Shown here in pieces: positions 4,825-63,780 of a DNA stretch of 64,000 bases. The notes beneath the pieces are model-generated. The model had not been told where the DNA came from. It saw nothing but the letters and a program-made list of their open reading frames with translations, and did not search any database. The stretch is from Eledone cirrhosa (taxonomy: Eukaryota), in NCBI GenBank assembly GCA_964016885.1, contig OZ024740.1, positions 280,612,001 through 280,676,000 of the forward strand. Reading direction: 5' to 3'. Each line of letters starts with the position of its first letter. The first letter of the stretch is position 1. Made by a program: the position numbers and the translations under genes.

Positions 4825-8477
<3,653 letters not shown>

Positions 8478-15235: not shown

Positions 15236-15371
<136 letters not shown>

Positions 15372-16080
15372 CGGAAAAAATGAAACGAAATTTCATTTCT
15401 CACTCTTAGTACGGCTGTAACTTAAATGTAAGTATGTACACGTACATACATATATGTATACAGACGTACAGTAGTACACTACGGCTTAATTCAGGATGTT
15501 TGTTTACAAACACACCGAGCATTATAATAAATGTTCGGTGAATCCATACGTACATATATATATATATGTGTGCATGTATGTATATATACATACTACTGTA
15601 CGTCTGTATACATATATGTATGTACGTATACATACTTATATTTAAGTAACAGCCGTACTAAGAGTGAGAAATGAAATTTCGTTTCATTTTTTCCGTTTAT
15701 CGTTTTCGGTACCCCGGCCGATTAACTCACTCGATATGCAAATTAGTCTGCACAGCCGTTAATATGCATAAGGAAAGTATATACTTTCAGACGTTCAATC
15801 ATCTGGCAGGAAGGTATACGTTGCTGCCGATAGCTAATAAGCTTGAAACTAGTACAGCGTTCCTTTGCCAGTGTTGAACAAATGAGCAACAATGGTTGCT
15901 AGACACTGTACGGCTTAATTCGGGATGTTTGTTTACAAACACACCTAGCATTATAATAAATGTTCGGTGAATCCATACGTACATATATATATGTGTGCAT
16001 GTATGTATATATATATACATACTACTGTACGTCTGTATACATATATGTATGTACGTATACATACTTATATATATATATAA
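15372..16080 (+). mobile_element. Non-coding HHR-bearing element, family A (retrozyme or solo-pLTR-like)
   Basis: ~429-bp period (15481 vs 15910) with a ~165-bp direct repeat; 15372-15476 is an inverted copy of 15591-15695; sits next to (TA)n; second copy at 47715-48129. Confidence 0.75.
15818..15860 (+). ncRNA. Type I hammerhead ribozyme, family A (A6C core mutation)
   Basis: acgttg-CTGCCGA-tagctaataagctt-GAAAC-TA-GTA-cagcgt. Confidence 0.7.
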
Positions 16081-16322: not shown

Positions 16323-16988
16323 CATTTCCTCTCCCAATTAGCATAATTAACCATATAAAAAATCAATTAGACCAGGCTATAAGAATAAAGGCTCCTATGA
16401 AGAAATATTTGATAAATAACCGAAAGCGGCCTCTTCGCGGTTGACCACAATAGAGTATTTACCCAACATTTCAACAGCATGTAGAAACTGACTAAATATA
16501 CCGTCAACCATACACAATTAGGTATAAATTTAAAGTTAGAAGAAACGTGTACATACCTTAATTACATCTCTACCATGGTTTCGTTCGTATTTTGAAATAT
16601 CCTATCATTAAGGATAACTCGAGTATCGAACTCATCAGGAGACAAACTCAATAGGACAGTTAATTTTCCAAAGCGATCGCGCCAGAAATAGATTAAAAAA
16701 ATGGCTAAGAATCGTGACGTGGCAGTGGTCAAGTTAGAAAGAAATGTAATTACGGTATGTACACGTTTCTTCTAACTTTAAATTTATACCTAATTGTGTA
16801 TGGTTGACGGTATATTTAGTCAGTTTCTACATGCTGTTGACATTTTGGGTAAATACTCTATTGTGGTCAACCGCGAAGAGGCCACTTTCCGTTATTTATC
16901 AAATATTTCTTCATAGGAGCCTTTATTCTTATAGCCTGGTCTAATTGATTTTTTATATGGTTAATTATGCTAATTGGGAGAGGAAATG
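16323..16988. mobile_element. Fold-back element with ~245-bp arms and an HHR in the spacer
   Basis: 16323-16567 is the near-identical reverse complement of 16744-16988. Confidence 0.85.
16566..16643 (-). ncRNA. Type I hammerhead ribozyme with palindromic stem III
   Basis: Minus strand: gtctc-CTGATGA-gttcg...cgaac-GAAAC-CATG-GTA-gagat. Confidence 0.88.
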
Positions 16989-17460: not shown

Positions 17461-17469
<9 letters not shown>

Positions 17470-18081
17470 AAGTGTAATGAATTCTTTTACAATGGAATTA
17501 GCTCGAAGGAGGAAATACCCCTGAGCCGTGTATAAACTAATATATATGATGAAACACAGATACCAACACATCTGTATTTATATTGCAAAAGAAAATTTAG
17601 CCAGAATGAAGTATACTAATTATTATACTACAGTTTGTCCATATCGATTTAAAATAATAAATCAACAAAGACGAACTGCATTGCCAAATGGCTATGATGT
17701 TTAGACACATTTAAATTTCAAAATCAAAGCTGTTACGTTGATAAGTTTAAACTTTAAAATCCAAATATGTTTCGAGATGAATAAGTGTAGGAATATCATG
17801 TCCTGCTCTCCTCAGTAAACATCCAGGGACAAATTGATATACTTCACTTTTAAATAATTTAAAAGACTGTGTAACGCACATGGTTTACAGTTTCTAGCTA
17901 GTCTCATAACCGTACTGCTAGAAATAACAGTCGTATATATGAGGCAACGTTCAGCTCAGCCTAGGAGCAGTTATATTATTAAGTGTAATGAATTCTTTTA
18001 CAATGGAATTAGCTCGAATGAGGAAATACCCCTGAGCCGTGTATAAACTAATATATATGATGAAACACAGATACCAGCACA
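17461..18081 (-). mobile_element. Non-coding ~511-bp module with a ~110-bp terminal direct repeat and a decayed HHR
   Basis: 17461-17571 recurs at 17972-18081; HHR-like motif on the minus strand at 17759-17820. Confidence 0.6.
17759..17820 (-). ncRNA. Degenerate hammerhead ribozyme
   Basis: Minus strand: gttta-CTGAGGA-gag...ctc-GAAACATATT-tggat; stem I is mostly G-U pairs and the stem III palindrome is broken. Confidence 0.5.
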
Positions 18082-18117
18082 TTTATTTGGACAGTCAGAT
18101 TCGTGATGATTTCTCAA

Positions 18118-18155
<38 letters not shown>

Positions 18156-18159
<4 letters not shown>

Positions 18160-18688
18160 CATGTGTCCCTTAGCGCCTTGTGCGTGTAGGAACATATACT
18201 CTATTATTATTCTCCTCTTGGTTGAGAAAAAAATTTGGTCGTTCTGACTGCTGCTAGTTATAGCGGTAGCCGACTGACCTCCCTGCCTCCGCCTCTATCT
18301 TTACACTCGGCCCTTGAAAAAATTGATTCCACTTCATTTTCTCTCATCTCGGGAACAATTTTGAATAGCGCCAGTTCGTAATTTGAATTCGGGAATTTTA
18401 TATTCTTCGAATGAAAAGATCCTTCTGACGAGAGTTTTTCTTTGCAACGGTTGCCGTATGGACTCCGTTTATTTTTGAGACTCGAAACCGATTCGGTAAA
18501 GGTAACTATAGTAAGTAAAGTTAATTTTTTTAAATTTATTTTGAAACTTTTTCTTATTTGCTAAACCTTGATTATATATGTTCTGGCTCGTTAATTTATT
18601 AACCTGCCATTGAACCACATTGGCATATGGTTGGACAATACATGTGTCCCTTAGCGCCTTGTGCGTGTAGGAACATATACTCTATTAT
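18156..18688 (+). mobile_element. Non-coding 481-bp monomer plus a 52-bp terminal repeat, carrying an HHR
   Basis: 18156-18207 is identical to 18637-18688; (TA)n on both sides. Confidence 0.8.
18421..18502 (+). ncRNA. Type I hammerhead ribozyme
   Basis: cctt-CTGACGA-gagtttt...gagactc-GAAAC-CGattCG-GTA-aagg. Confidence 0.88.
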
Positions 18689-18920
18689 ATATATATATCT
18701 TCTCTAGCGATCGACTTTCGTCAAATCGGACCGAGGAAACAATGTTTCCGTTGGTCTTTCCAGTTGCTAGTACTATCTATCGGCCGCAACTCCAGGTAGA
18801 AGGAGCAAAGTGAAATAAAGTGCCTTGCTCAAGGACATAACGCATCGCCTGGTCCAGGAATCGAACTCAAAATACTAGATGAGTACCTTATAAATACCAC
18901 GACATTTATTTGGACAATCA

Positions 18921-18969
18921 GATTCCTGATGATTTCTCAAGAATGAAACAGTTCTAGTCCTGTAGAATC
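18921..18969 (+). ncRNA. Type I hammerhead ribozyme, family B
   Basis: gattc-CTGATGA-tttctcaagaat-GAAAC-AGttctagtcCT-GTA-gaatc; 5' half duplicated at about 18098-18121. Confidence 0.88.
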
Positions 18970-33297: not shown

Positions 33298-36200
33298 TTT
33301 TCTCTTTCTCTTAATTTTGAGTATATTTTTTGACCGGCCACCTTCCTGGTGGCAAGGTTGTAAAAGAAAAGAAATTGTCATCCCTTGAATCGCAAGAATG
33401 TTTTGCAAATTTTGAAGGTGCCAGCTATCGCAGCCATTTGTAGACTATGAATTAGGTAGCTGCGCTTTTTGTCCGCAAATCCAAGTTCAGTCATACTTTG
33501 GTCCAAGCGGGTTGGTATATAACCCGTAGCACCAATAATGATGGGTATGAAGCTAAAGGTGTATCTTGGATACTGGATTTGTAAACTCCTCATCAATGGT
33601 CCGTAGATGTCCTCCTTCTCCTGTATTTTTCTGACAACGTTTACATCAAGTGGGCAGCTGATCTCCACAACAGAACACGTTTTCAATGTGTGGTCCCAAA
33701 CTACAATATCAGGCCGGTTGTGCTTTAATTTGGTGGCAGTTTTTATTTTCAGGTTCCACCAGTATTCCTTAGTGCCATCTGTCTCAATATATTCTTCCTC
33801 GTTTGTTGTTGATTTTGTTTTCCGAAGTGCGTTCCAGATGGTTCTAGCTATCCCATCGTGTCTCATGGGGAGGTAGTAGCGAGATGACATTCTTTCGCAG
33901 CTGGCAACAATGTGGCTTACATCCTCGATCTTTGTTTTACATAGCCTACATTTATTGTCAGCTGCTGGCCCTCCTCTTTTGTGCAGCAGATATTTGGTAG
34001 GGAGTTCTTGTTCCTGTATTGTATAGAGATATCCCTCAAGGTGTGATGTCATAAACTTGTCGGAACTCCATGCCAGGCTTTTTGAGTGGTTTATCCCCTC
34101 TATGGTCTGTGTTTTACGCCTCAAGTATCCATGCACAACTTTTTCTGTAAATTGGTCAATTTTTTTTTCTTATTTGAACATTGAATAGGATCTTCCGATT
34201 TCTCTGGGTGAGAGATTTATATCGGGCTTTATTCCATATCTCTCCTCCAGATCAGTCGCTATTCTAATGATATTTCTTTTTTCATGGTCATAAACCTGGG
34301 CAAGATGGTTGCCAACCTTTTTCCTCTGTTGAAGGTGTTGCTTCAGTGTCACTATCCGGGTCTCATATGTTGTTAATATTGATTTTAGACCCCGGCCACC
34401 TTCATTGCGTGAGAAGTATAGCCTATCCACATCACCATTGATGTTAAAGTTCCCAGTAACACTGAGAAGTTTTCGAGTTCTAACATCCATCTCACTTAGT
34501 TCTTGCAATGACCAGTTCAGTAGGCCAAATGTTGGCGTTAGAATTGGCACAGCATAAGTATTGTGGGCAATGTATTTGTTGTATGCTGACAGTTCTGATG
34601 ACCATATTTTCTTTACTCTTCTGAGGTATTCAGTTCTGGTTCTCTCCTTATTTATGGGTCCATCATATCTGACATTCTCATCCTGTCCAAGATATCTGTA
34701 GTTGTCACCTGACTGCAGAGGTTGTATTGTCAGGCCGTTCATCTCTAGATTTCTAGAGGAGGGCACAGCTCTTCCACGTTTTACTGCCAAATATGCACAC
34801 TTGGACTCACCAAATTTCATTTTGATGTCGGTTGAAAATTGTGTAATGAGGTCCAATTGTTTCTTGATGTCATTGATATTTGGCCCATACAACTTCAGGT
34901 CATCAACAAAGAAAAGATGGGAGATACTTCTGGTCCCACTTCTTTGTCGACCTTGTTTCCTGAGTAGGTAAGATAGTGGATTCAGTGAGAGAACGAAGAG
35001 TAGCACTGACAAGCTATCACCCTGAAAGATGCCCTTCTGGTAATGTATCTTATCAGTCTTAACCTGCTCCTTCTCACCTCTAAGGATCAAACTGGTGTAC
35101 CAGTTCTTGGTCAGGCGTTCAACAGCAGCTACCAATGGTTGTGGGACTTTAGCTAACTGTAAAGCCTTAACAATCCACCCATGAGGTACACTATCAAATG
35201 CTTTTTGATAGTCCAGCCACACGACAGTCATGTTTCTGCGATTCTTTGTTGTTTTTTCCTGAATCATTTTGTTAGTTAGTAGGTGATCTATGCAACCCCA
35301 CACCTCCCTCTTTCCACCAGCTTGCTCAGGTGTTATGATGTTGTTGGTAGCACAGTGATCCTGTAAGAACAGGTTAAGGCACCCAGTATATAATTTATAC
35401 ATGATGTTTTGGCAGGCAATTGGGCGGTAATTTTTAGCAAGGGTGGTTTGGCTATTTTGGGGAATGAGGAGAGTAGAGGCAGTTGATAACCATCTGGGCA
35501 GTTCTTGTGTGCCCTTAATGGTTTCTGTAAACAGCCGTATGAGATCTTGCCGATAGAAAGTGAAATTCTTCAACCAGTATCCTGTAATGAGGTCTGGGCC
35601 TGGCGATTTCCTATTCGACATTTTCTGTAGAGCTGTTTCCAGTGTTGACCCATCTATGTCATATTGTTTTGTCTGGACATGTTGGCAGTAGTCCTGTTCC
35701 AGTTCTTTTAGCCAATTAGCTTGTCTGTTGAATCCGTCATCCGTTTCCCATACAGATCTCCAGTAGCTCTCAACCTGTTCTTTTGAAGGGGTGTCATTTA
35801 CAGAGATTGAGCTTTTGCCACCGAAGCTGCGATAAACTGATTTAGGATCTCTGGCAAACAATCTATTTAGCACTTGTCGTTTATGTGCTGTTGACTTATA
35901 TTTTAGTCTTTCTGTTGTAGCTGTGAGTTGTTGTTTCAACTGGTGTAATTTGGAGTTCAAAGTTTTAAATTTTGTATCTCCAAATCTTCTCTCTAACATT
36001 TTCTTTAGGTCTTCCTGGTGTTGTGTGAAGTTGCTCTCTATGTTGCATTTCATAACGACTGCGATGTGTGAGATACTTCGTCTCAGGGACAAAATTTTGG
36101 TTTTTAAATTTCGCATCCACGCTGGTTCAGGCTTTCTGTTTGTATCTTGATTGCGTGGTTTTAGATGTGTGTTATATGCTAGCAATGTGACAGCTGAAAC

Positions 36201-37325
36201 ATATAACAAAACATTAAGCGTTTCAAATGTCGTTTCTACACCTTTAGATCGTATAGCCTTCAGATAATTGCCAGCTATTTCGTTCACCGCTTCCAATTCC
36301 AATTTAGTCGGTTCTTTACTGACTCTAGTGTTGTATGGTCTGTCACTCACATTAAGGCTGTGTATCTCTTGAAACATATCATTCCATATCACTTGTAGGG
36401 AGCCCACAAGTTTTTGGTGCTCTGTTTGTTCAGTAGAGTCATGAATTTCAGCCTCGTTGTTGATGTGGTGACAATTACTACTAGAGTCAGCTGACCTTTC
36501 TCGCTGTTCTTCAGTGGAAGTGGGATGAATTTCAGCAAAATTGTTGGTGAGCTGTTCACTGTTAGATTTAGCTGGCCATTCTCTTTGTCTGTCAGTGGAG
36601 GTGGGGTGGTTGTCTACAAGGGCTGTATTTGTAGTATCACTCGATTCCGTTAGATGTATCAACTTACATCTAATGATACGTTTTGCCTGTTCATTTAAAT
36701 GCTTTGGAGAAAAGTCTAATTCTGGGTGTTTGGAGTTCCATAAAGTTTTTAGCCGTTGCATAAAACCGAACTTTTGGGGTTCAGATTGTTTGTATGCTTC
36801 ATATAATACTTTGTTAAGCTCGTAGGTCCACTGTGTACAACGGTTGTAATTGCGATTTGGTCGAAGGAGACTTGTACTTTTTGCCATGATGAGTTCGTCT
36901 ATTCACTAATATTTCGTATTTATTTTTCAAAATAGTCGATGATCTTCTTTAAAAGTTACGACAAAGTTCTGTCAGAATCAAATTTAAAGTTATTCACAGC
37001 TTGAGTAATATTTCTTTTCAGTTAGTTTTTAATTCTACAGCTGTGTTTTATATAAATGTAATATTTCTTTATAAATGTAATATAACAACGTTGCATTTAT
37101 ATGTTAAAGTGTATGTATCGTTCATATATCATAAGTGTATGTATCGTTCATATAAATAGGTGTTTTACAACACACTTACAGTTCAAACACTTATGTAGAA
37201 TTATTGTATGTAATCTTACCGCGTAATGTAGCTCAACTTTTTCCAATATATGGTATGTTGCCTTCATGTAAGCCGTAATTACACACGTCCGATTATCGGA
37301 CACTGACCACAACGGTCGCCATTTT
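33298..37325 (-). mobile_element. Near-full-length R4/Dong-clade non-LTR retrotransposon
   Basis: Single long RT + zinc knuckle + REL endonuclease ORF; (ATGT)n on both flanks; aaaatggcg at the putative 5' end. Confidence 0.88.
33378..36887 (-). pseudogene. R4/Dong ORF with one in-frame TAA at 34172-34170
   Basis: KSPGPD, NYRPIAC, WLDYQKAFDSVPH, GIFQGDSLS, HLFFVDDLKLY; after the stop the same frame continues EKKIDQFTEKVVHGY...CRLC...HIVASC...RHD...RPDIVV...VEISCP. Confidence 0.92.
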
Positions 37326-41202: not shown

Positions 41203-42791
41203 TGCCTCTCAAAAGTTTACAACACATTAGGAAAAATGCAGTTTTAGGTATTTTTAATAAAGTTAGGGTAATGAAAATTTAACTACTGATAGAACATATA
41301 ATGAGGCATTTAATGATACAATCATATTTAAAAAAAAATAACAAGGAAATAACACATGAAGAAAAATCAATATTTTTATAACGCAAAAGTTTACAACACA
41401 TTTTATATTTATCGCTTTTTTTCAAGAAAATTCTTAAATTTTCAGATTTAAAATTCAGTAGAATGTTCTAGATTAGGTTTAAGGTAACTTCTAAGGACTA
41501 TTAAAAACATTACATCATTATTTGTCTGACAACCATCCTGTAAACATTGACAACCGTCCTGTAAACATGGACAATATGGGGAAAAATAAACTGATTGATC
41601 AAGACCTCCGTAAAGGCATTGTAGACCTTCATACAAATGGTGTTGGTTATAGAAAGATATCTTGTCAGTTAAATGTGCCATTGAGTTCAGTTGGTACAAT
41701 AATTCGTCACTGGAAATCTCATCATTCCATCTGTCCTCTAATTAGTTCTGGTTGTCCTAGAAAGATAACGGAACGTGCAGCTCGGTTATTGACGAGAAAG
41801 GTTGGCAACGAACCCCGGTGTACTCTTAAAAATCTTCAGGATGACCTAGAAGAAAGTGGAGTAAAAGTGAGCACAGATACAATTAGTCGTTCACTTCGTC
41901 GATATAATATCTTCTCGAGGTCTCCAAGGAAAACACCACTTCTTACGAGGAAACACGTTCTTCGTCGATTAAACTTTGTAAATGAGCATCTAATCAAACC
42001 TGCGTCATTTTCGGAAGATGTACTTTAGTCGGACGAAACAAAAATTGAACATTTTGGTCGAAATGCTGTGGCAAAAGTCTGGAGAAAGAAAGGTACTGAA
42101 TATTCGCTGAAGAATACTATTCCAACTGTAAAATTTGGAGGTGGTCTGGGGTTGCTTTAGTGCCACAGGAGTAAGGCATTTTGAAATAATAGAAGGAAGA
42201 ATGGGTGGCACTTATTATAGAGGTATTTTCTAAAGGAATTTACATCAAAGTGCACATTCTCTCAGCTTAAAGCCAGGTTGGTTTTTTCAACAAGATAACA
42301 ATCCAAAGCATACTGCAAAGCTAACACAATCTTGGTTAAGTACGAATGGAATAAATGTTCTAAAATGACCATGTCAGCCTCCAGATCTTAACCCGATCGA
42401 AAATTTGTGGAGAGAATTCAAAAAAGGAAACCCCAAAATATCCCTGAACTAAAGAAAATTTGTTGTGAAGAATGGATAAATATTAGCCAAGAAACATGCA
42501 AGAAGTTTGTAGGAGGCTACTCCAAACGCCCTACAGGCTGTACTTAGCAACAAAGGTTACGCTACAAAATATTAAGAGATGATTTAATAAATGTGTTGTA
42601 AACTTTTGCGTTATAAAAATATTGATTTTTCTTCATGAGTTATTTCCTTGTTATTTTTTAAAACTATGATTGTATCATTAAATGCCTCATTATATGTTCT
42701 ATCGGTAGTTAAATTTTCATTACCCTAACTTTATTAAAAATACCTAAAACCGCGTTTTTCCTAATGTGTTGTAAACTTTTGCGGGGCACTG
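41200..42791 (+). mobile_element. Tc1-family DNA transposon, IR/DR type, full length but defective
   Basis: TA|CAGTG...CACTG|TA; ~203-bp TIRs each containing two copies of aaaagtttacaacacatt. Confidence 0.95.
41576..42575 (+). pseudogene. Tc1 DD34E transposase pseudogene
   Basis: MGKNKLIDQDLRKGIVDLH...GCPRK...VL*SDETK...FQQDNNPKH...PDLNPIENLW...GYATKY*, with several stops and frameshifts. Confidence 0.92.
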
Positions 42792-43019: not shown

Positions 43020-43999
43020 TTAAAATGATATTTAAGCGTAACTCGAGTAATAAGCATTTTCAGGCATCATATATTTTAAACCACCTACAGAAAACAATTA
43101 AAAAACATTTCTGTTATTCGACACCAAAAAGGAGTCCATAATATTTCAGACGGAAATCCTTGCTTCAAATCATGTTGAAAGTATCATGCATTATTTTATT
43201 TCCGCATTAATAGTTATAAAAATATCTCACATTTTAACCTTAGATTCAAATAGTATACCACTTACACAGTGCCAACGCAAAGACAGCACATATTTTCCCA
43301 GTATTTTCTCACAGCACCACTCCTAATATCAACAACCCCCGCATTTCATACCACTCCTATATGTTATCTAATTTTGACTCTATTTAATAAAAAAAATGAC
43401 TGTTTCTAACACATTTCGAACAATTCTAACATATTTAAAAAAATAAACAAATATAAGAGACTGTTCATATGATTTTACAAACAAAATTTGATATAATAAC
43501 TAGTAAATGACCCATTGTTTCGCCATATTCACTGCAGAATAAGCTCAAAGATTCCAATGAATAGTTTCGTACATTTTATATCAACTAGAAATAGATTGAC
43601 ACATATATATATCATGTCTCTCAGACATGACAACCTTAATATAATTCTGGATATATATACGGCCCCTTGATTGTAGAGCGAATTCAGTTGAATGGACTGG
43701 GCTGCTATTTCTAGCTGTCGATAATCCTATTCACGCCACTGGGATGACGCGGTGCGATATCTGTATTTTTTATAAAATGCAACACGTGGTTCGAGTCATT
43801 CACAGATTTGCATTTGCTGTGTAAACACAGATGCTTGGATCTTTTCCTTTGGTGACCATCCAGGATTTGACCACTGTGATTTACAGATTAATTGGTGAAA
43901 TATATATTTTATTTAAAGAAATATATACAAAGGAGATTAATCATTTTAAAAGGTATCTATATTTGAAGTTCTAGTTAAACTTTAATTAGTTAACTACCT

Positions 44000-44175
44000 A
44001 GCTATGTGTGCTTACACACTTTACAAATTATTCCCTGAGATTGTTTCATGTGTTTATGTGTCAATCTATTTCTAGTTGATATAAAATGCTCGGAACTATT
44101 CATTGGAATCTTTGACCTTATTCTGCAGTAAATATGGCGCATGTCTCTCAGACATGACAACCTTAATTTAATTCT

Positions 44176-44178
<3 letters not shown>
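44000..44178. repeat. Unclassified ~180-bp interspersed repeat
   Basis: Recurs at about 58141-58334; rearranged, partly inverted copy at about 43518-43651. Confidence 0.7.
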
Positions 44179-44759: not shown

Positions 44760-44921
44760 TATTTAACCAATAAATGGGGCCCTAACAGGTACTAATACTC
44801 CGGGTAAGAGCAGATCTGGGAGTGATAACAACTAATGGGTAATTCCACATTCCCCACAGCTCCTGAACTTCCGAACTGGAGCCTTGCCACTGCATGTAGT
44901 TTAATGTCATACCCAGGACAA
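44760..44921. repeat. Interspersed repeat resembling a common octopus repeat
   Basis: ggtactaatactccgggtaagagcagatctgggagt...gtcatacccaggaca; recognised from memory only, single copy in this window. Confidence 0.4.
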
Positions 44922-44924
44922 ATA

Positions 44925-46841
44925 TGTATATATACAACAGCACACGGAATCTAACACAACCAGATTCCCGATATACCAACTGGATCGCCCACTCTGCCCA
45001 CCGCCTGCCAACCGCGAGCTGGAAGAAAAACTCTCGAGGCTAAAACATACCGTATTTAACATCTTACGGAAACAGAAGAAGATAGCCCCAAACCTCTCTA
45101 GGACGCAACAACTCGCCCTGAAGAACCTGCAGAATAGGGAACTCATATACTTACCATCCGACAAAGGTAAAGCGTTTTGTATCATCTCTCCAGCCACATA
45201 CAACAACCTAGCCTTTGAACACTTAAGCGACAACGAACTATATACAGAGATCCCGGACATAACTGCAGCCCAGATCGAAAAACAGGCCAACTCCATTTGG
45301 TTCGACTTTTGTAGTAGAAGACAACTCCCAAATAAATTTAAGTCCAATTACACCACTAGAAATAGCAGACTGCCCACTTTCTATCACCTCATCAAACCCA
45401 TAAGAATAGTACTAAAACACAAATAAGACTCATCGTCTCTAGCATAGAAGGGCCCCTATACAAAATCTCCTGGCTCCTCTCCCAGGTCCTCAAGCCTCTA
45501 CACTCCACCTTTCCCGGGAATGTCAGTAGCTCCGACGAGGTCATACGTAGACTACACCAAATCCAGCCAGAACAACTTAAACTCAATAGATACGCCTTTA
45601 GCCTTGACGTTGTCTCCCTCTACACTACAGTCCCCGCTCATCCAGCTGTCGATTTATTGACGGACTGCGTGGTCGCCGAAGACGTCCACTGCTACGGCCT
45701 CCACCCGACGGACATACACCAACTTTTGTCCTTCACAGTGGACAACACGTACTTCACCTTCCACCACCACACATACATACATACAACAGGATTACCCATG
45801 GGATCCAGCCTATCGGGCCTGCTGGCCATCACCTACATGAACCAGCTGTAATTCCGAGCCCTCAACACCTGTCATTCCTATACCTTCTTCATCCGGTATG
45901 TAGATGACATACTCATCCTTACATCATCCCGTGAAGAAGCGGATAAAATATACATGACATTCTCCAGCATGGACGCCAATATAAAGTTCAGCATGGAACA
46001 CCCCGATGACTGCGGTTCCCTATCCCTATTGGACTTCCAACTCAGGGTAACAGAGGAAGGCGACATCCACACCTGCTTCTACAAAAAATCCGCCAGCGGG
46101 AACCTGTTTGTACATTCCAGATCAGCCCTCCCAGTCAGCGCTAAGTTCGGATACATAAGGAACGAACTAACACGTATCCGGAACAAATGCACCGACGCAA
46201 GAGACCGAGACACACTCACCACACATTTCCTGGAAGTACTTAAACTGAACGGATACCCGACGTCCACCGCGAACCGTGCCAGAAACAACAGAGGACACCA
46301 CACCCGAGGCACTAACACCTGCTTCCTGAAGCTCCCACACTTCAGTGACGAAACAACAACAGCCATCCGCAGATCTATCAGACGAGAGGGACTAGATATC
46401 CAGCTAGTCCACTCAGGACCTTCTCTACGCGGACAGCTAACCAAGAGACACTCCACCAGACATGACAGCCGCTGTACTCTGGCCAACTGCCCCATCGACG
46501 ACACAGACATATGCCACCAGGCTTACGTCGTATACAGATTAGAGTGCGACAAATGCAGCAATTTCTACGTAGATAGCACCACCAAACAACTTCACATTAG
46601 AATAAAAGAACACCTCAACACTAATGCTTCCTCATTTAAGAAACACCCAGTAAAAGGCAAAAACACCGACAAAAACATAATAGTTAGGATAGAAGCTAAG
46701 GAAAGAAACCTCGGCAATCTTAGAATTAAAGAAGCACTAATTATAGACACAACGCAACCACCAATCAATAACAGACTTGAACTCAACACACAATTTTTAA
46801 CAGGATAGAACACCTAGCCCCACACTTACACCTCCACGTAT

Positions 46842-47714: not shown

Positions 47715-48129
47715 GAAATTTCGTTTCATTCTATTCCATTTATCTTTTTCGGTGTGCCCGGCCGACTGAACTCACTCGATATGCAAATTAGGCTGCTCAG
47801 CCGTTAATATGCATAAGGAAAGTATATACTTTCAGACGTTCAACCATCTGGCAGGAAGGTATACGATGCTGACGATAGCTAATAAGCTTGAAACTAGTAC
47901 ATCGTTCCTGTGTCAGTGTTGAACAAAAAGGTGACGTGGTTGCCTAAACACTGCACGGCGTAATTCGGGCTGTTTGTTTGTTTACAAACAAACAAACAAA
48001 CCGAGCATTATAATAAATGTTCGGTAAACCGATACGTGCATATATATATAAGTGTGTGCATGTATGTATATATATATATATACATACTACTGTACGTATG
48101 TATACATATATGTATGTACGTATACATAC
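47715..48129 (+). mobile_element. Family A HHR element, second copy
   Basis: Colinear with about 15673-16066. Confidence 0.8.
47863..47905 (+). ncRNA. Type I hammerhead ribozyme, family A (intact core)
   Basis: acgatg-CTGACGA-tagctaataagctt-GAAAC-TA-GTA-catcgt; palindromic ACTAGT stem III. Confidence 0.9.
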
Positions 48130-48137
48130 ATATACAC

Positions 48138-48171
<34 letters not shown>

Positions 48172-49994: not shown

Positions 49995-50168
49995 AATAAT
50001 TGTTTCTACTTTAGGCACAAGGCCAGCAATTACCCAGTGCATTACTGGTACTTTATTTTATCGACCCCGTAAGGATGAAAGGCAAAGTCAACCTCGGCGG
50101 GATTTGAACTCAGATCGTAAAGGGACGTAACTATGCTGGAAAGCATGGCGTCCGACCCTCTACCGATA
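49995..50168 (-). mobile_element. SINE family 1
   Basis: Reverse complement of the family 1 body. Confidence 0.88.
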
Positions 50169-50230
50169 TGATAAACTATGTGAAAAAATATGATTATTGC
50201 CGCACAATACATAGGAGAGTATAAATATTT

Positions 50231-50458
<228 letters not shown>

Positions 50459-52439: not shown

Positions 52440-52860
52440 TATACGTTATGTAGATAGTCATACAACATGCAATGTGATAAAATATAGATATATAGTATTA
52501 TAATAACAATCCACAAGTATATTTGTCTTGGACAACAGATTTACTGGAAGACAGCTATTGAGAAAATGAAAAAAAAAAAAAAGAAATCAAGGTAGATTGT
52601 GTGCCTTTAATATATTATAAGACATCACCAAATGAAAGATACCGCTCTGCCCTAACGCCGGAGTGTTTGACCAGTGTAACATACCATCCATGACTTAAAC
52701 ACATATGACTAAAGCATGAAACAAGCTTAGAATAAAACTAAAACCTCAGTTTATAGTTTATATATATATGTAAGCAAAGGGATATTTAATTTGACAGGTT
52801 TTCTGGAGTATAATATCAATGATATTAATAAATGGAAATTATATTCATAAAACCACATTT

Positions 52861-52919
52861 ATTCTATTATATATATTTCAAGGATACCAAAACTTTGGTA
52901 CACTCTCATCAGATAAAAT
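52861..52919 (-). ncRNA. Type I hammerhead ribozyme (left arm)
   Basis: Minus strand: attttat-CTGATGA-gagtgtaccaaagttttggtatcctt-GAAA-TATATA-TA-atagaat. Confidence 0.75.
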
Positions 52920-53031
52920 ACAAAGTTTGTTTTATAAATATTGACATATCCAGGAACGAGATCTTAATGGTTCAAGTTTTACCAGCTAAAACTTGAACTG
53001 GATATGTCAATATTTATAAAACAAACTTTGT

Positions 53032-53090
53032 ATTTTATCTGATGAGAGCGTACCAAAGTTTTGGTATCCCTGAAATATATATAATAGAAT
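53032..53090 (+). ncRNA. Type I hammerhead ribozyme (right arm)
   Basis: attttat-CTGATGA-gagcgtaccaaagttttggtatccct-GAAA-TATATA-TA-atagaat, overlapped by AATAAA at 53088-53093. Confidence 0.72.
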
Positions 53091-53115
53091 AAATATGGTT
53101 TTATAAATATAGTTT

Positions 53116-53166
<51 letters not shown>

Positions 53167-53924
53167 TGGTATGTTACACTGGTCAACACTCTGCCCTTAG
53201 AGCAGAGCGGTATCTTACATTTGGTGATGTCTAATAATTAAAGGCACACAATATAGCTTGATTTCTTGTTTTTTCATTTTCTCTATAGCTGTATTCCAGT
53301 AAATCTGTTGTCCAAGACAAATATACTTGTGGATTGTTATTGTAATACTATATATCTATCTTTTATCACATTGCATGTTGTATGACTGTCTACATAACTT
53401 GTGTTTCCTTCATATGTATTCTAAGTGCCAACTTGTTGCCTTTAATTCCCGTAAATGAGCATTTATTAAGATGTCTGTAGCCAGTAAAGCGCAAATGACT
53501 CAAATATTCACTATTTATGTTTATTTGTTTTTCATCCTAGTTAAGCTTCTTACTGATGCCAACCAACGTTAAAGAATTTGGGTGATCTTATACTGTCTTT
53601 CTTTACAGCTGTTTCAATATTAATCTTTTCACTTTCAGATGGGAGTCCTATACTGTTGCTTGTCTAAGATCTTTTAAAATAATTTATATATAAATTCAAT
53701 GTATTTCACGATCAAGCACAACTACCGAAGGCTTCTTTCATTAACAGTAAAATATAAATACAATCGTTATCTATATTTCCAACGTTTCTGAATTACTTGG
53801 TGCTGGATTTGCTCTAGAGTTCTTATATATTTTATATATATTTATCCTTATCGAGCCTCGTGAAATAAATACGTTTGTTTGTATTTTGTTATTGTGTATG
53901 CAAAAATATCTGTACACGAATATA

Positions 53925-54023: not shown

Positions 54024-55996
54024 GTAGAAAAGTAAGAAATCGGAGAATAGACCGTTAAAACATGTTTATTTAAAACAGCACCTACGTACGTTTCGCCCAG
54101 TTGGGATTCTCAAGGGCATAAATAACCAAAAGTGTTCCTTACATTACAAGTGCTCGGAAAGAGTTTTTGGGGTTAAATTCACGTCAAGGTTCATTGCTCG
54201 CAAAAATAGCTTGTTTTGATTTTGCAGCAGGTCAAGGGAGGTAACTCTGGCCAGTGTTAGGGCAGTCTTTCCCGGACAAATTTTTATCCGTTACAAGATG
54301 AGATTACAACCTTACCATTGTCGATGCTCACAGGGTCATGTAACCAACGCTTATTTTGAGACGTTTGTTTTCCGCACCTGTTTGTCTGGGTCGTTTGAGG
54401 CTGGGTCTGGTATGCATGGTTAGTTTCCTGGGTGTTATTTTGCAGCGCCTGCCCGCCGGGATGTTAAAACTTGTTGCAGGGAGATCCGGTGCACGGTTTC
54501 ACTCCTCATCCTTAACCCATCTGAACTAGGATATTTTCAAGCGATGTGCACAACTTATCGCTGTTTCAGCTCTGCTGTTGATGAGCTCGTGGGGTGCAGT
54601 TATGATGTGGTAGAGCTTCATGAGGCAAAGATCGTACTTCCTCTTGAAGTTGTACGGTGCAGCCCTGTCGACAATATCCCAGTGCGTGGAGAAGCTGATG
54701 TTTAAGTCCTTTAGTGATGTGATGTAGTCCGCGAGCGAAGTGGAGTGTCTTAGTTTTTTATTTGTGAAAGAGTGGAGATGTGTTCGAAACCTAACTTTGA
54801 ACGGGCCGGAGGTAGCCCCTATATAATGTTTAACGTTATTGTGGCTAGTTACAGTGCATCTATATATAACCCTATCAGTCAAGCAGTATCCTCTAAGGGG
54901 GCAGCATCCTCTGTAGCGGCAGTTGCAATTTCCGTCGCGGTTCCATCTATTTCCCACGGCAAGGCTATCATTGTTGCTGCCTACGTTGTTATCTCCCGCA
55001 GCTGTCGTTAGCACAATTACAACCCACATCACGCGGGGTGGTGCGATTGTTATTCCGCACGTCATGTCCGGCATGTTCCCCAGTCAATGGATGCTGCTAG
55101 GGAGTTGTTAAGGCCGATATAGTTATTGTCAGGTGTAGGTGCGTCTGTGTCGAGGTGCTGTGTCTTGGTGATCTTACTGTGGTTCGTTGTTCCTATGATG
55201 TCTGCTAGGTTAGGAGTAGTAGAGAAGGATATTTTTATATTATTGCTATTAAGAATTTTTCTATACCTATGGTTGGGCGGGAAGTTCTTCTCTAAGGCTT
55301 CGAAGAATATCCGGTGTATGTTGGAGGCCACACTCCGAGAGTAGGGGGGTGGAACCATAGGACGTTACGGTGGCGATTACGTGTCCTACGGGTGGTTCCA
55401 TCTAGGTGACCGCTCTTATGTCTGTTAATGCGCGTTAGTTACTCCTTTCACTTTATGCTCGGGTGCACTCTTCTTCCCTCTTCTTCCCTCTTCCATGTTT
55501 ATGTACAGGAAGATGTTGGTTGGAAGGCGTTGGTAGTAGGCCGTCGCCTTTGTTGGTTTTGTAGTAAGGGAATAGTTCGAGTAATCTACAGTGGTCACCG
55601 TCGCCGGGGTCGTGATATTTAGTGCAATTATCTATTCTATTATATACGACTTCAACGAGGTCGCCGCGTGAACGGTTATAGGTATGGCTTACTATAACGT
55701 TCGTTTTATGAGTGGGGTGGTTTCTAGAGCTAGCGTTAGGGATGTAGGAAATTCCCCGGTTAAAGCCGGCGCTTATCAAGGCCCTATTGTAGTAATCTGC
55801 CGCTTGGTTGAAGATATCCTCATTGGCGGATAGCCTCGATATTCTATGTGAGATACTATAGACTATGGAGTTGAGAGTCTGCTTAGTTCCACCCCCCCTA
55901 CTCTCGGAGTGTGGCCTCCAACATACCCCGAATATTCTTCGAAGCCTTAGAGAAGAACTTCCCGCCCAACTATAGGTATAGAAAAATTCTTAATAG
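54022..55996 (-). mobile_element. Penelope-like element 3, 5'-truncated, related to PLE1
   Basis: FPPNHRYRKILNSNNIKISFSTTPNL, CNC...CPLRGYC, VIYRCTV...YIGATSGPFKVRF, CAHR; 3' end abuts (TA)n. Confidence 0.88.
54078..54117 (-). ncRNA. Variant minimal hammerhead (U3/A8 core) in the PLE3 3' end
   Basis: Minus strand: gccc-TTGAGAA-tcccaactgggc-GAAAC-GTAC-GTA-ggtgc, followed by AATAAA. Confidence 0.68.
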
Positions 55997-58016: not shown

Positions 58017-58333
58017 ATAGATACAAACTATGTAGTGTGGAAATGCCTAAACTGGAAATGCCTTAACAGGATATTCTGATGATCCGGTTAAGGGTGAAAT
58101 CAGCGATTCTTTGCTTAAAATTTAATCTGTTCTTATAATAGCTATGTGTGCTTACACACTTTTACAAATTATTCCCTGTGATTGTTTCATATGTTTATTT
58201 TATATATATATATGTCAATCAATTTCTAGTTGATATAAAATGCTCGGATCTGTTCATTGGAATCTTGGATATGGACATCTACAGTGGATATGGCGCATGT
58301 CTATCTGACATGACACCCTTAATTTAATTTTGG

Positions 58334-58369
<36 letters not shown>

Positions 58370-62926: not shown

Positions 62927-62965
62927 TTCTCTAATAATAATAATTATATATATATATATATATAT

Positions 62966-63094
62966 AATATAGAAATGGCTTCTACAGGACTAGAACTGTT
63001 TCATTCTGGAGAAACCCTCAGAAAGCATCAGGTGCTTCCTGATGATTTCTCCCGAATGGAACAGTTCTAGTTCTGTAGAAGCCATTTCTATATT
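62966..63094. ncRNA. Head-to-head pair of family B hammerheads
   Basis: Plus 63034-63082: gcttc-CTGATGA-tttctcccgaat-GGAAC-agttctagttct-GTA-gaagc; the minus-strand copy has CTGAGGG and GAAAC; 5-nt spacer. Confidence 0.75.
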
Positions 63095-63780
63095 AAATAT
63101 TAATACTCTGCTATGTATTGAGTACCTTACTTACTGCGGTTACCCCCATGATTCACTAGCACTTTTCCTCCACTATCTTCTTCTTAGTTCCACCTTCTCC
63201 ATCTCACCAGTACTCTCTCCTGTTCCCCCTCTTACTCTACCTTCCACCCATGTTTTCGCCTCTTCTTTCCACCACACCACGTCCTTCTCTCCACCGCACC
63301 GCTAGTCTCCTGCTATTACTTCTACACTTTCTCTCCATTCTCAGCCCTCCATCATATCCAATTTCAAATCCTTCCTCTGCCAGCTCCATTCTACTTTCAA
63401 ACGCTTCTTCCGACCTCTTCCCCTATTTATATCCAATGCTCCTTGCATCTCCAAACTCATCTTCACAAAAAACACGCTACGATAGTCTACATCACCTTTT
63501 ATAAGTCGATGTCTCCACCACCACCTTATTCCCCAAGATTTCCGTGTCAAATTCCACCCCACCTCATACTCTGCTCCCACCACTAAGCCCTGGGCCATCC
63601 TTACGCGCTCCTCTCACCATCTCATGCGGGCGACTATCCGTTCCACTCTCTCTCAAATCCGTTCTCTCTTCAAGATGGCCGACTGAATACGCACAAGTGG
63701 TTTTTTTTCTCCCCATTTTATTTTCTCATTTTCCCCCGTTCTTTCCTCTCATCACTCTTTACTTTCTATTTATATCTCTA

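Follow-up and report, generated by a model that had tools for sequence, protein, structure and literature searches.

A 481-nt unit with an internal hammerhead motif

The element lies in a stretch of 64,000 nucleotides (64 kb), the whole of which was analysed and is called the window here; this animal sequence is rich in microsatellites and has a cephalopod-like look. At the locus, one full non-coding unit stands between two (TA)n tracts and is preceded by a second copy of its own last 52 nt (Table 1). The two copies of these 52 nt are identical at a spacing of 481 nt, and an exact repeat of this length is expected by chance ~1e-26 times per window. The first-pass annotation had described a perfect terminal direct repeat at this spacing with (TA)n on both sides, and we confirm both points, the left tract being (TA)18 and the right one just (TA)6. 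Because the tracts overlap the first base and the last three bases of the repeat, its informative length is 48–52 nt.

Table 1 Features of the element and Penelope-like ORFs in the window
Feature	Position	Strand	Basis or remark
(TA)18 tract, left flank and presumed target	18120–18155	none
Upstream 5′-truncated copy, covering the last 52 nt of the unit (partial tandem, pseudo-LTR)	18156–18207	+	100% identity to 18637–18688; longer overlaps in other copies
Unit junction within a short (TAT)n tract	18202–18211	+	3–6 extra letters here in other copies
One full non-coding unit, 481 nt	18208–18688	+	Family members in public reads
Type I hammerhead ribozyme motif, predicted cut 18498/18499	18421–18502	+	Descriptor search and fold
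Internal TA tract	18572–18579	+	Second 3′ end: one organism B contig (run X5) exits the unit here into (TA)n
3′-terminal hairpin, putative reverse-transcriptase recognition or start structure	18642–18678	+	z = −3.1
(TA)6 tract, right flank, overlapping the element's last three bases	18686–18697	none
Interrupted Penelope-like ORFs	5350–7708; 44905–46808; 54526–55989	+; +; −

The unit has a GC content of 37.6%, its longest ATG ORF is 33 aa when the unit is closed on itself, and no match to a Pol III A or B box was found within its 481 nt. The element has no significant match elsewhere in the 64-kb window and is single-copy there. The repeated 52 nt contain a hairpin whose stability was equalled in 1 of 200 shuffles. 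A TAT tract lies directly 3′ of this hairpin, and the same tract makes up the internal unit junction. All three of the variants listed inside the 52-nt repeat fall on unpaired hairpin positions, a weak sign. On both sides, the element is flanked by a 49-nt piece of another hammerhead family (18071–18119 and 18894–18942, 92% identical), the left piece breaking off in mid-ribozyme at the (TA)18 tract; these pieces probably reflect nested insertions.

The hammerhead core lies on the + strand, with CUGACGA at 18425, GAAA at 18484 and GUA ending at 18498. The conserved core (CUGANGA, GAAA, NUH), three helices and an open-ended helix I place the motif in type I. In dinucleotide shuffles of the element, any descriptor match arose in 3 of 3,000 and a strong match in 0 of 3,000. 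Helix I is 4 bp long and helix II 7 bp; in place of a small loop 2, helix II is extended by 38 nt. Helix III, nearly palindromic, closes a loop of 3 nt. The earlier description of one canonical hammerhead in the middle of the element thus holds for the complete core and the internal position, but not for the word canonical: helix I is short, helix II is extended, canonical helix sizes and a loop 1–loop 2 contact are lacking, and no match to the Rfam hammerhead was obtained at the gathering score across the whole window or at E ≤ 10 in two local stretches. The predicted ribozyme fold has −18.6 kcal/mol against −19.5 kcal/mol for the free local fold, placing the active fold 0.9 kcal/mol higher. 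Cleavage is predicted after 18498, the last base of the GUA.

Variation in public reads bears on the same structure. The 40 variant rows listed, of 212, include 36 within the unit and none in the catalytic core. Among the run X9 reads, the allele at 18420 (468/652) adds a fifth pair to helix I, that at 18436 (328/557) turns a U–G into a C–G pair, and a one-base loss at 18492 (182/562) makes helix III a perfect palindrome. An allele at 18438 (174/553) breaks the outer pair of helix II, and position 18503 is altered in one organism B contig. From these alleles, the family looks constrained for the hammerhead fold, with the copy at 18208–18688 appearing slightly weaker than the majority.

Hammerheads and Penelope-like remnants across the window

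With a relaxed descriptor we detected seven type I hammerheads in the 64 kb, against none in each of 30 shuffled windows. They lie at 16638 (− strand), 18425, 18926, 44461 (−), 47869, 52912 (−) and 56492, and four have a palindromic helix III. A TA or CA tract follows 98–187 nt past the cut in five of the seven, and at 491 and 10,204 nt in the other two. There are further hammerhead copies at 53039 and degenerate ones near 15826, 50250 and 63040. Inverted pairs of hammerhead-bearing copies occur at 52445–53398, 62965–63133 and 50150–50330; their 3′ ends differ and sit at AT-rich spots before (TA)n, resembling the tails of Penelope-like elements (PLEs). At 16323–16988, a 249-nt inverted repeat (98%) surrounds the minus-strand hammerhead (C3 16638, cut after 16571). 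Its inverted arm at 16740 begins no more than a few bases from the predicted cut, resembling what a ribozyme-cut RNA copied to its 5′ end would leave; this is one case, noticed post hoc.

Three small ORF-less elements in the window also carry direct partial repeats, namely 15370–16079, 43521–44178 and 17466–18119 (spacings 429, 527 and 511 nt, respectively). The first consists of an inverted 105 nt, a direct partial copy of 165 nt, a unit of 429 nt and a microsatellite. The second has the same order (inverted 85 nt, direct 39 nt, unit 527 nt, microsatellite), and no hammerhead was detected in it. Inverted 5′ pieces are thus present in two of the three. Shorter second copies that share the 3′ end and run into (TA)n lie at 47715–48144 (of 15370–16079) and 58139–58334 (of 43521–44178). 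Two other families in the window have 3′ ends that differ between copies, each at an AT-rich spot. These small elements are analogues of the 481-nt family, not members of it.

A Pfam scan of 11 window ORFs identified a C-terminal GIY-YIG domain in two, at 6368–7708 and 45852–46808 (E = 5e-4 and 6e-5), matches that lie just under or just over the Pfam cut-off; one of these ORFs has a reverse transcriptase fragment ahead of the domain. A third, similar Penelope-like ORF (54526–55083) had no Pfam match and was assigned by eye. The ORF at 5350–7708 is flanked by inverted and direct terminal pieces beside (TA)n and (TC)n/(AG)n. No similarity between the 481-nt element and the PLE ends was found in the 64 kb compared. 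The window also contains an ORF for a reverse transcriptase of 910 aa, with a zf-RVT ORF behind it (33378–36902, −), and a Tc1-like transposase fragment within 204-nt inverted repeats (41495–42028, +).

Copies of the unit in public reads

Eleven public runs were listed, of which eight hold part of the stretch and none is recorded as RNA. We compared four of the 11 (X1, X5, X6 and X9) with 18208–18800, one unit plus flank, at 85% likeness; X2, X3, X10 and X11 and the small-share runs X4, X7 and X8 stood outside this comparison. All 24 unit bins were covered in both organism A runs and parts of them in organisms B and C, with matched records 85–100% identical to the unit. Judged from these reads, the 481-nt unit forms an abundant, diverged, multi-copy family in organism A, and pieces of it occur in organisms B and C as well. 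Exact 25–26-nt patterns of the element matched nothing in metagenome contigs, viral contigs or prokaryote genomes. The right flank at 18708–18800 is a very high-copy repeat, with a depth ~10 times that of the element in both organism A runs and a presence in B and C too; we take it to be SINE-like. This repeat dominates the lists of loose ends and pieces, which leave out 413 and 8,102 rows, respectively.

The end of the unit is joined to its start (18688 to 18208) in three X1 contigs and in 29 X9 raw reads from 10 starts among the joints listed, and many of these joints carry 3–6 variable letters in between. One X1 joint contig extends at least 95 nt on each side, and another X1 record aligns over 18520–18688 (169 nt) and continues for 71 further letters. 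Six X9 raw reads reach 18208 from upstream of 18637 (joints from 18639 and 18651, with 29 and 28 nt on the shorter side). The upstream overlap is thus 52 nt at this locus and at least 95 and 169 nt in the X1 contigs. A collapsed repeat could mimic a long overlap in a contig, but six raw reads begin before 18637, so the overlap length varies and the 52 nt belong to the unit. Opposite-strand joints were found in two X1 contigs, one in each. No copy with two ribozymes occurs among the listed contigs, which are short, although head-to-tail joints are present.

At the unit start, where the mean depth is 54, ~50 joint reads are listed; of the 331 reads over 18680, by contrast, the listing has only 40 that go on into the unit start. 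This asymmetry is suggestive of a preferred 3′ end near 18688, which it fits; RAD starts, listing thresholds and divergence at the junction could mimic it. The second 3′ end seen in organism B, in the internal TA tract, runs against a single one. Two sets of candidate ends were set aside. Peaks of X9 molecule ends at 18324, 18394, 18526, 18593 and 18596 fit RAD restriction sites and read length and are probably not element ends, and 5′ loose ends at 18516–18546 in X5 and X6 fall in an AT-rich, divergent zone and were not accepted as stops at the ribozyme cut.

The variable overlap also decides how the 52-nt repeats are to be read. Two features could be counted in favour of LTRs of a TRIM-like non-autonomous element: the terminal repeats are identical, and on the minus strand a run of 10 purines precedes the repeat at a distance of two bases. 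However, the 52-nt repeats lack TG...CA termini, neither of them adjoins a TGG primer site, the read depth over the 52-nt block is not double that of the body, and other copies have longer overlaps. The ribozyme is moreover of type I and internal, whereas LTR retrozymes carry a type III ribozyme in each LTR (10.64898/2026.07.22.740005). We consider an LTR origin very improbable, and a fixed LTR of 52 bp is largely refuted by the raw reads that run from upstream of 18637 into 18208. An even less credible proposal is that the 52 bp are host sequence, forming a long target-site duplication around a 429-bp insert. Retrozyme target-site duplications, when present, are said to be larger than 4 bp (PMC7229834), and the 52 bp are unique in the window; yet more than 330 X9 reads cover the block with shared variants, which excludes a single locus as their source, and the block is contiguous with 18520–18636 and joined to 18208 in diverged copies. 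A duplication of host DNA is thereby refuted. Fixed LTR-like ends and a long target-site duplication were the two outcomes that the first-pass annotation had named as contradicting it, and neither was found.

The joints bear equally on whether the element was ever mobilised as a unit. It might instead be a left-over pseudo-LTR or internal-deletion product of an autonomous PLE, with the 52-bp overlap arising by DNA-level recombination or slippage. Retrozymes have been proposed to stem from PLE terminal sequences (10.64898/2026.07.22.740005), and the window is rich in PLE remnants. Against such debris, the sequence ahead of the unit start is the unit end, and not an ORF, in nearly all of the listed reads that reach this start; the joint is seen again in diverged copies, where the spacers differ; and the unit has no ORF above 33 aa. 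We regard this origin as improbable.

The age of the copy can be bounded loosely. Zero differences in 52 nt limit divergence to <5.6% (95%). An octopus calibration of JC 0.09 at 25 My (PMC13282606), doubled for a pair, puts the copy under ~8 My, provided that the organism is comparable. The copy at 18208–18688 differs from more than 85% of reads at four positions (253/269 at 18290, 32/34 at 18340, 35/40 at 18388 and 432/452 at 18451) and, judged by these alleles, is either not brand new or from a minor subfamily. The inference of a recent event drawn earlier from the identical repeats is consistent with their identity, but it is a weak one, given the divergence still allowed and the four positions.

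Probable insertion by a Penelope-type enzyme and its possible templates

The element is probably a non-autonomous, PLE-mobilised element of the non-LTR retrozyme kind, written from a linear tandem or re-primed template. In its form, the insertion is best read as a full unit preceded by a 5′-truncated copy, that is, a pseudo-LTR. A full copy behind a 5′-truncated one is a described form of PLE insertion (PMC8969392), often accompanied by an inverted piece and with a (TA)n bias in several clades, including clades without hammerheads (10.1101/2021.04.23.441226). Non-autonomous PLEs with pseudo-LTRs are known in Chlamydomonas (10.1101/2021.04.23.441226; 10.1101/2022.05.23.493040). The 481-nt family has a full unit after a variably 5′-truncated copy, inverted pieces in some copies (the two X1 joints) and a microsatellite target, the (TA)n flanks.

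The protein of an anole PLE was found to nick at ATT, to begin reverse transcription at stem-loops within the RNA and to accept uncleaved RNA in vitro (PMC11167929). In our preferred reading, a PLE protein supplied in trans would nick the (TA)n tract, and reverse transcription would begin within the RNA, at a UA-rich tract that immediately follows the terminal hairpin, 190 nt past the ribozyme site; we infer both this start site and the role of the hairpin. The enzyme would copy one uncleaved unit, cross the junction and stop 52 nt into the next unit. The template would most likely be linear RNA read through from a parent locus arranged as a tandem or partial tandem; otherwise the enzyme may have moved to a second RNA and primed anew there. 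Had the template been a linear monomer with both ends made by ribozyme cleavage, it would run from 18499 to 18498, and its copy would show neither an overlap nor an intact internal ribozyme. The template must therefore have contained a junction as well as a ribozyme left uncut, as would be the case for a circle, a tandem transcript or a pair of RNAs linked through re-priming. The copy itself has one ribozyme and therefore cannot release a monomer circle.

The first-pass annotation had attributed the overlap to reverse transcription slightly more than once around a circular RNA, or through a tandem transcript. The crossing of the junction stands: more than one unit was copied, the ribozyme is intact in mid-copy, and the same joint occurs elsewhere with longer overlaps. 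That these features point to a circle is not supported, a 5′-truncated copy plus a full unit in (TA)n being the usual form of a PLE insertion. Nor can circularly permuted copy ends serve as the proposed check. In vitro, initiation by a PLE reverse transcriptase falls at fixed positions within uncleaved RNA, so that 3′ ends would cluster for a circular template too; the DNA left behind would be alike for a circle and a linear tandem, and end mapping cannot separate the templates. Reads across the GUA site cannot do so either, since uncleaved linear RNA reads identically.

A covalently closed circle of 481 nt is possible but on balance unlikely as the template; two ribozymes would have freed it from a tandem parent, and the same enzyme would have gone round it 1.1 times. 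Metazoan retrozymes form abundant circles, and a circle-templated cycle has been proposed for them (PMC7229834). The closed monomer is predicted to fold better than 60 of 60 shuffles (z = −3.0) with helix I hidden (pairing probability 0.0), and the near-equality of joint reads and depth at the unit start, the second 3′ end at 18579 and the common alleles at 18420 and 18436, which strengthen the ribozyme fold, all agree with a circle. On the other hand, the same build occurs in PLEs without ribozymes (Naiad and most Chlamys), where none is needed (10.1101/2021.04.23.441226), and ribozyme mutants left PLE insertion in vitro unchanged (PMC11167929). The listed contigs include no two-ribozyme parent, the common allele at 18438 weakens helix II, and in vitro cleavage was obtained for just 1 of 9 predicted Xenopus retrozyme dimers (10.64898/2026.07.22.740005). 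We hold as doubtful the broader proposition of a dispersed retrozyme family whose copies were written from a ribozyme-made circle by a Penelope enzyme priming at UA-rich tracts that match the nicked (TA)n, in a genome where the use of ribozyme-cut linear RNA would be recorded as well, by the inverted copy near the cut in a neighbouring family.

In how it works, the element resembles described relatives. The non-LTR retrozymes of metazoans are low-GC repeats of short length that contain type I hammerheads; coral, mussel and axolotl express them in both linear and circular form, and PLEs are the mobilisers proposed (PMC7229834). A later survey relates retrozymes to PLE pseudo-LTRs and describes many monomers (Li et al. 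2026, 10.64898/2026.07.22.740005). Like these retrozymes (Cervera and de la Pena 2020, PMC7229834; Li et al. 2026), the element is a short, low-GC, multi-copy unit without an ORF, with one type I hammerhead and without an LTR, PBS or PPT beyond the one purine run, its overlap not being fixed. It shares their head-to-tail joints and the PLEs alongside, and dispersed monomers are common among them. Unlike them, it comprises 1.1 units with one ribozyme and so falls short of the two consecutive units, with two ribozymes, that Li et al. (2026) require of an active element. Its helix II has the 38-nt extension, and it is known here from DNA alone, whereas theirs are known as circles. The 481-nt unit exceeds the 150–450 bp of metazoan retrozymes (PMC7229834), though it lies within the 51–972 bp of the later survey (10.64898/2026.07.22.740005); this excess, the second 3′ end, the lack of an autonomous partner within the 64-kb window and that of a two-ribozyme copy among the short listed contigs count against the reading that we prefer.

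With pseudo-LTR PLEs (Penelope/Poseidon, Neptune, Hydra and Naiad; Craig et al. 2021) and with MRC1 and Chlamys-N4, the element shares a full unit after a 5′-truncated copy, inverted joints in other copies, a microsatellite target and a hammerhead upstream of the 3′ end. It differs from them in having no ORF and no partner with a shared 3′ end within the window. The non-autonomous Chlamys examples belong to a clade mostly without hammerheads and target (CA)n or (C)n, unlike the element. Plant LTR retrozymes and TRIMs are likewise non-coding with terminal direct repeats, and the retrozymes among them carry a hammerhead. However, their fixed LTRs with TG...CA ends, short target-site duplications and a type III ribozyme per LTR contrast with the type I ribozyme inside the body, the absence of TG...CA ends and the overlap that varies between copies. 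We found no paper on a cephalopod or octopus hammerhead or retrozyme family by title or abstract, and supplements (PMC7229834 and the 2026 preprint) may list cephalopod repeats. The words 'ribozyme' and 'retrozyme' do not occur in the main text of an octopus repeat annotation (PMC13282606).

The element adds a family with an extended helix II to the described class, in a genome that is dense in hammerhead elements (seven in 64 kb). What serves as template when retrozymes integrate, and what the hammerhead does in PLEs, are both described as open (PMC7229834; 10.1101/2021.04.23.441226), and an abundant family with many dispersed insertions of 1.x units is good material for testing the template. 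Its importance would be greater if circles and two-ribozyme parents were found. If the circle-templated reading were true, the family would offer a natural system in which the step from circle to genome, and the role of the hammerhead in PLE insertion, could be tested from insertion ends.
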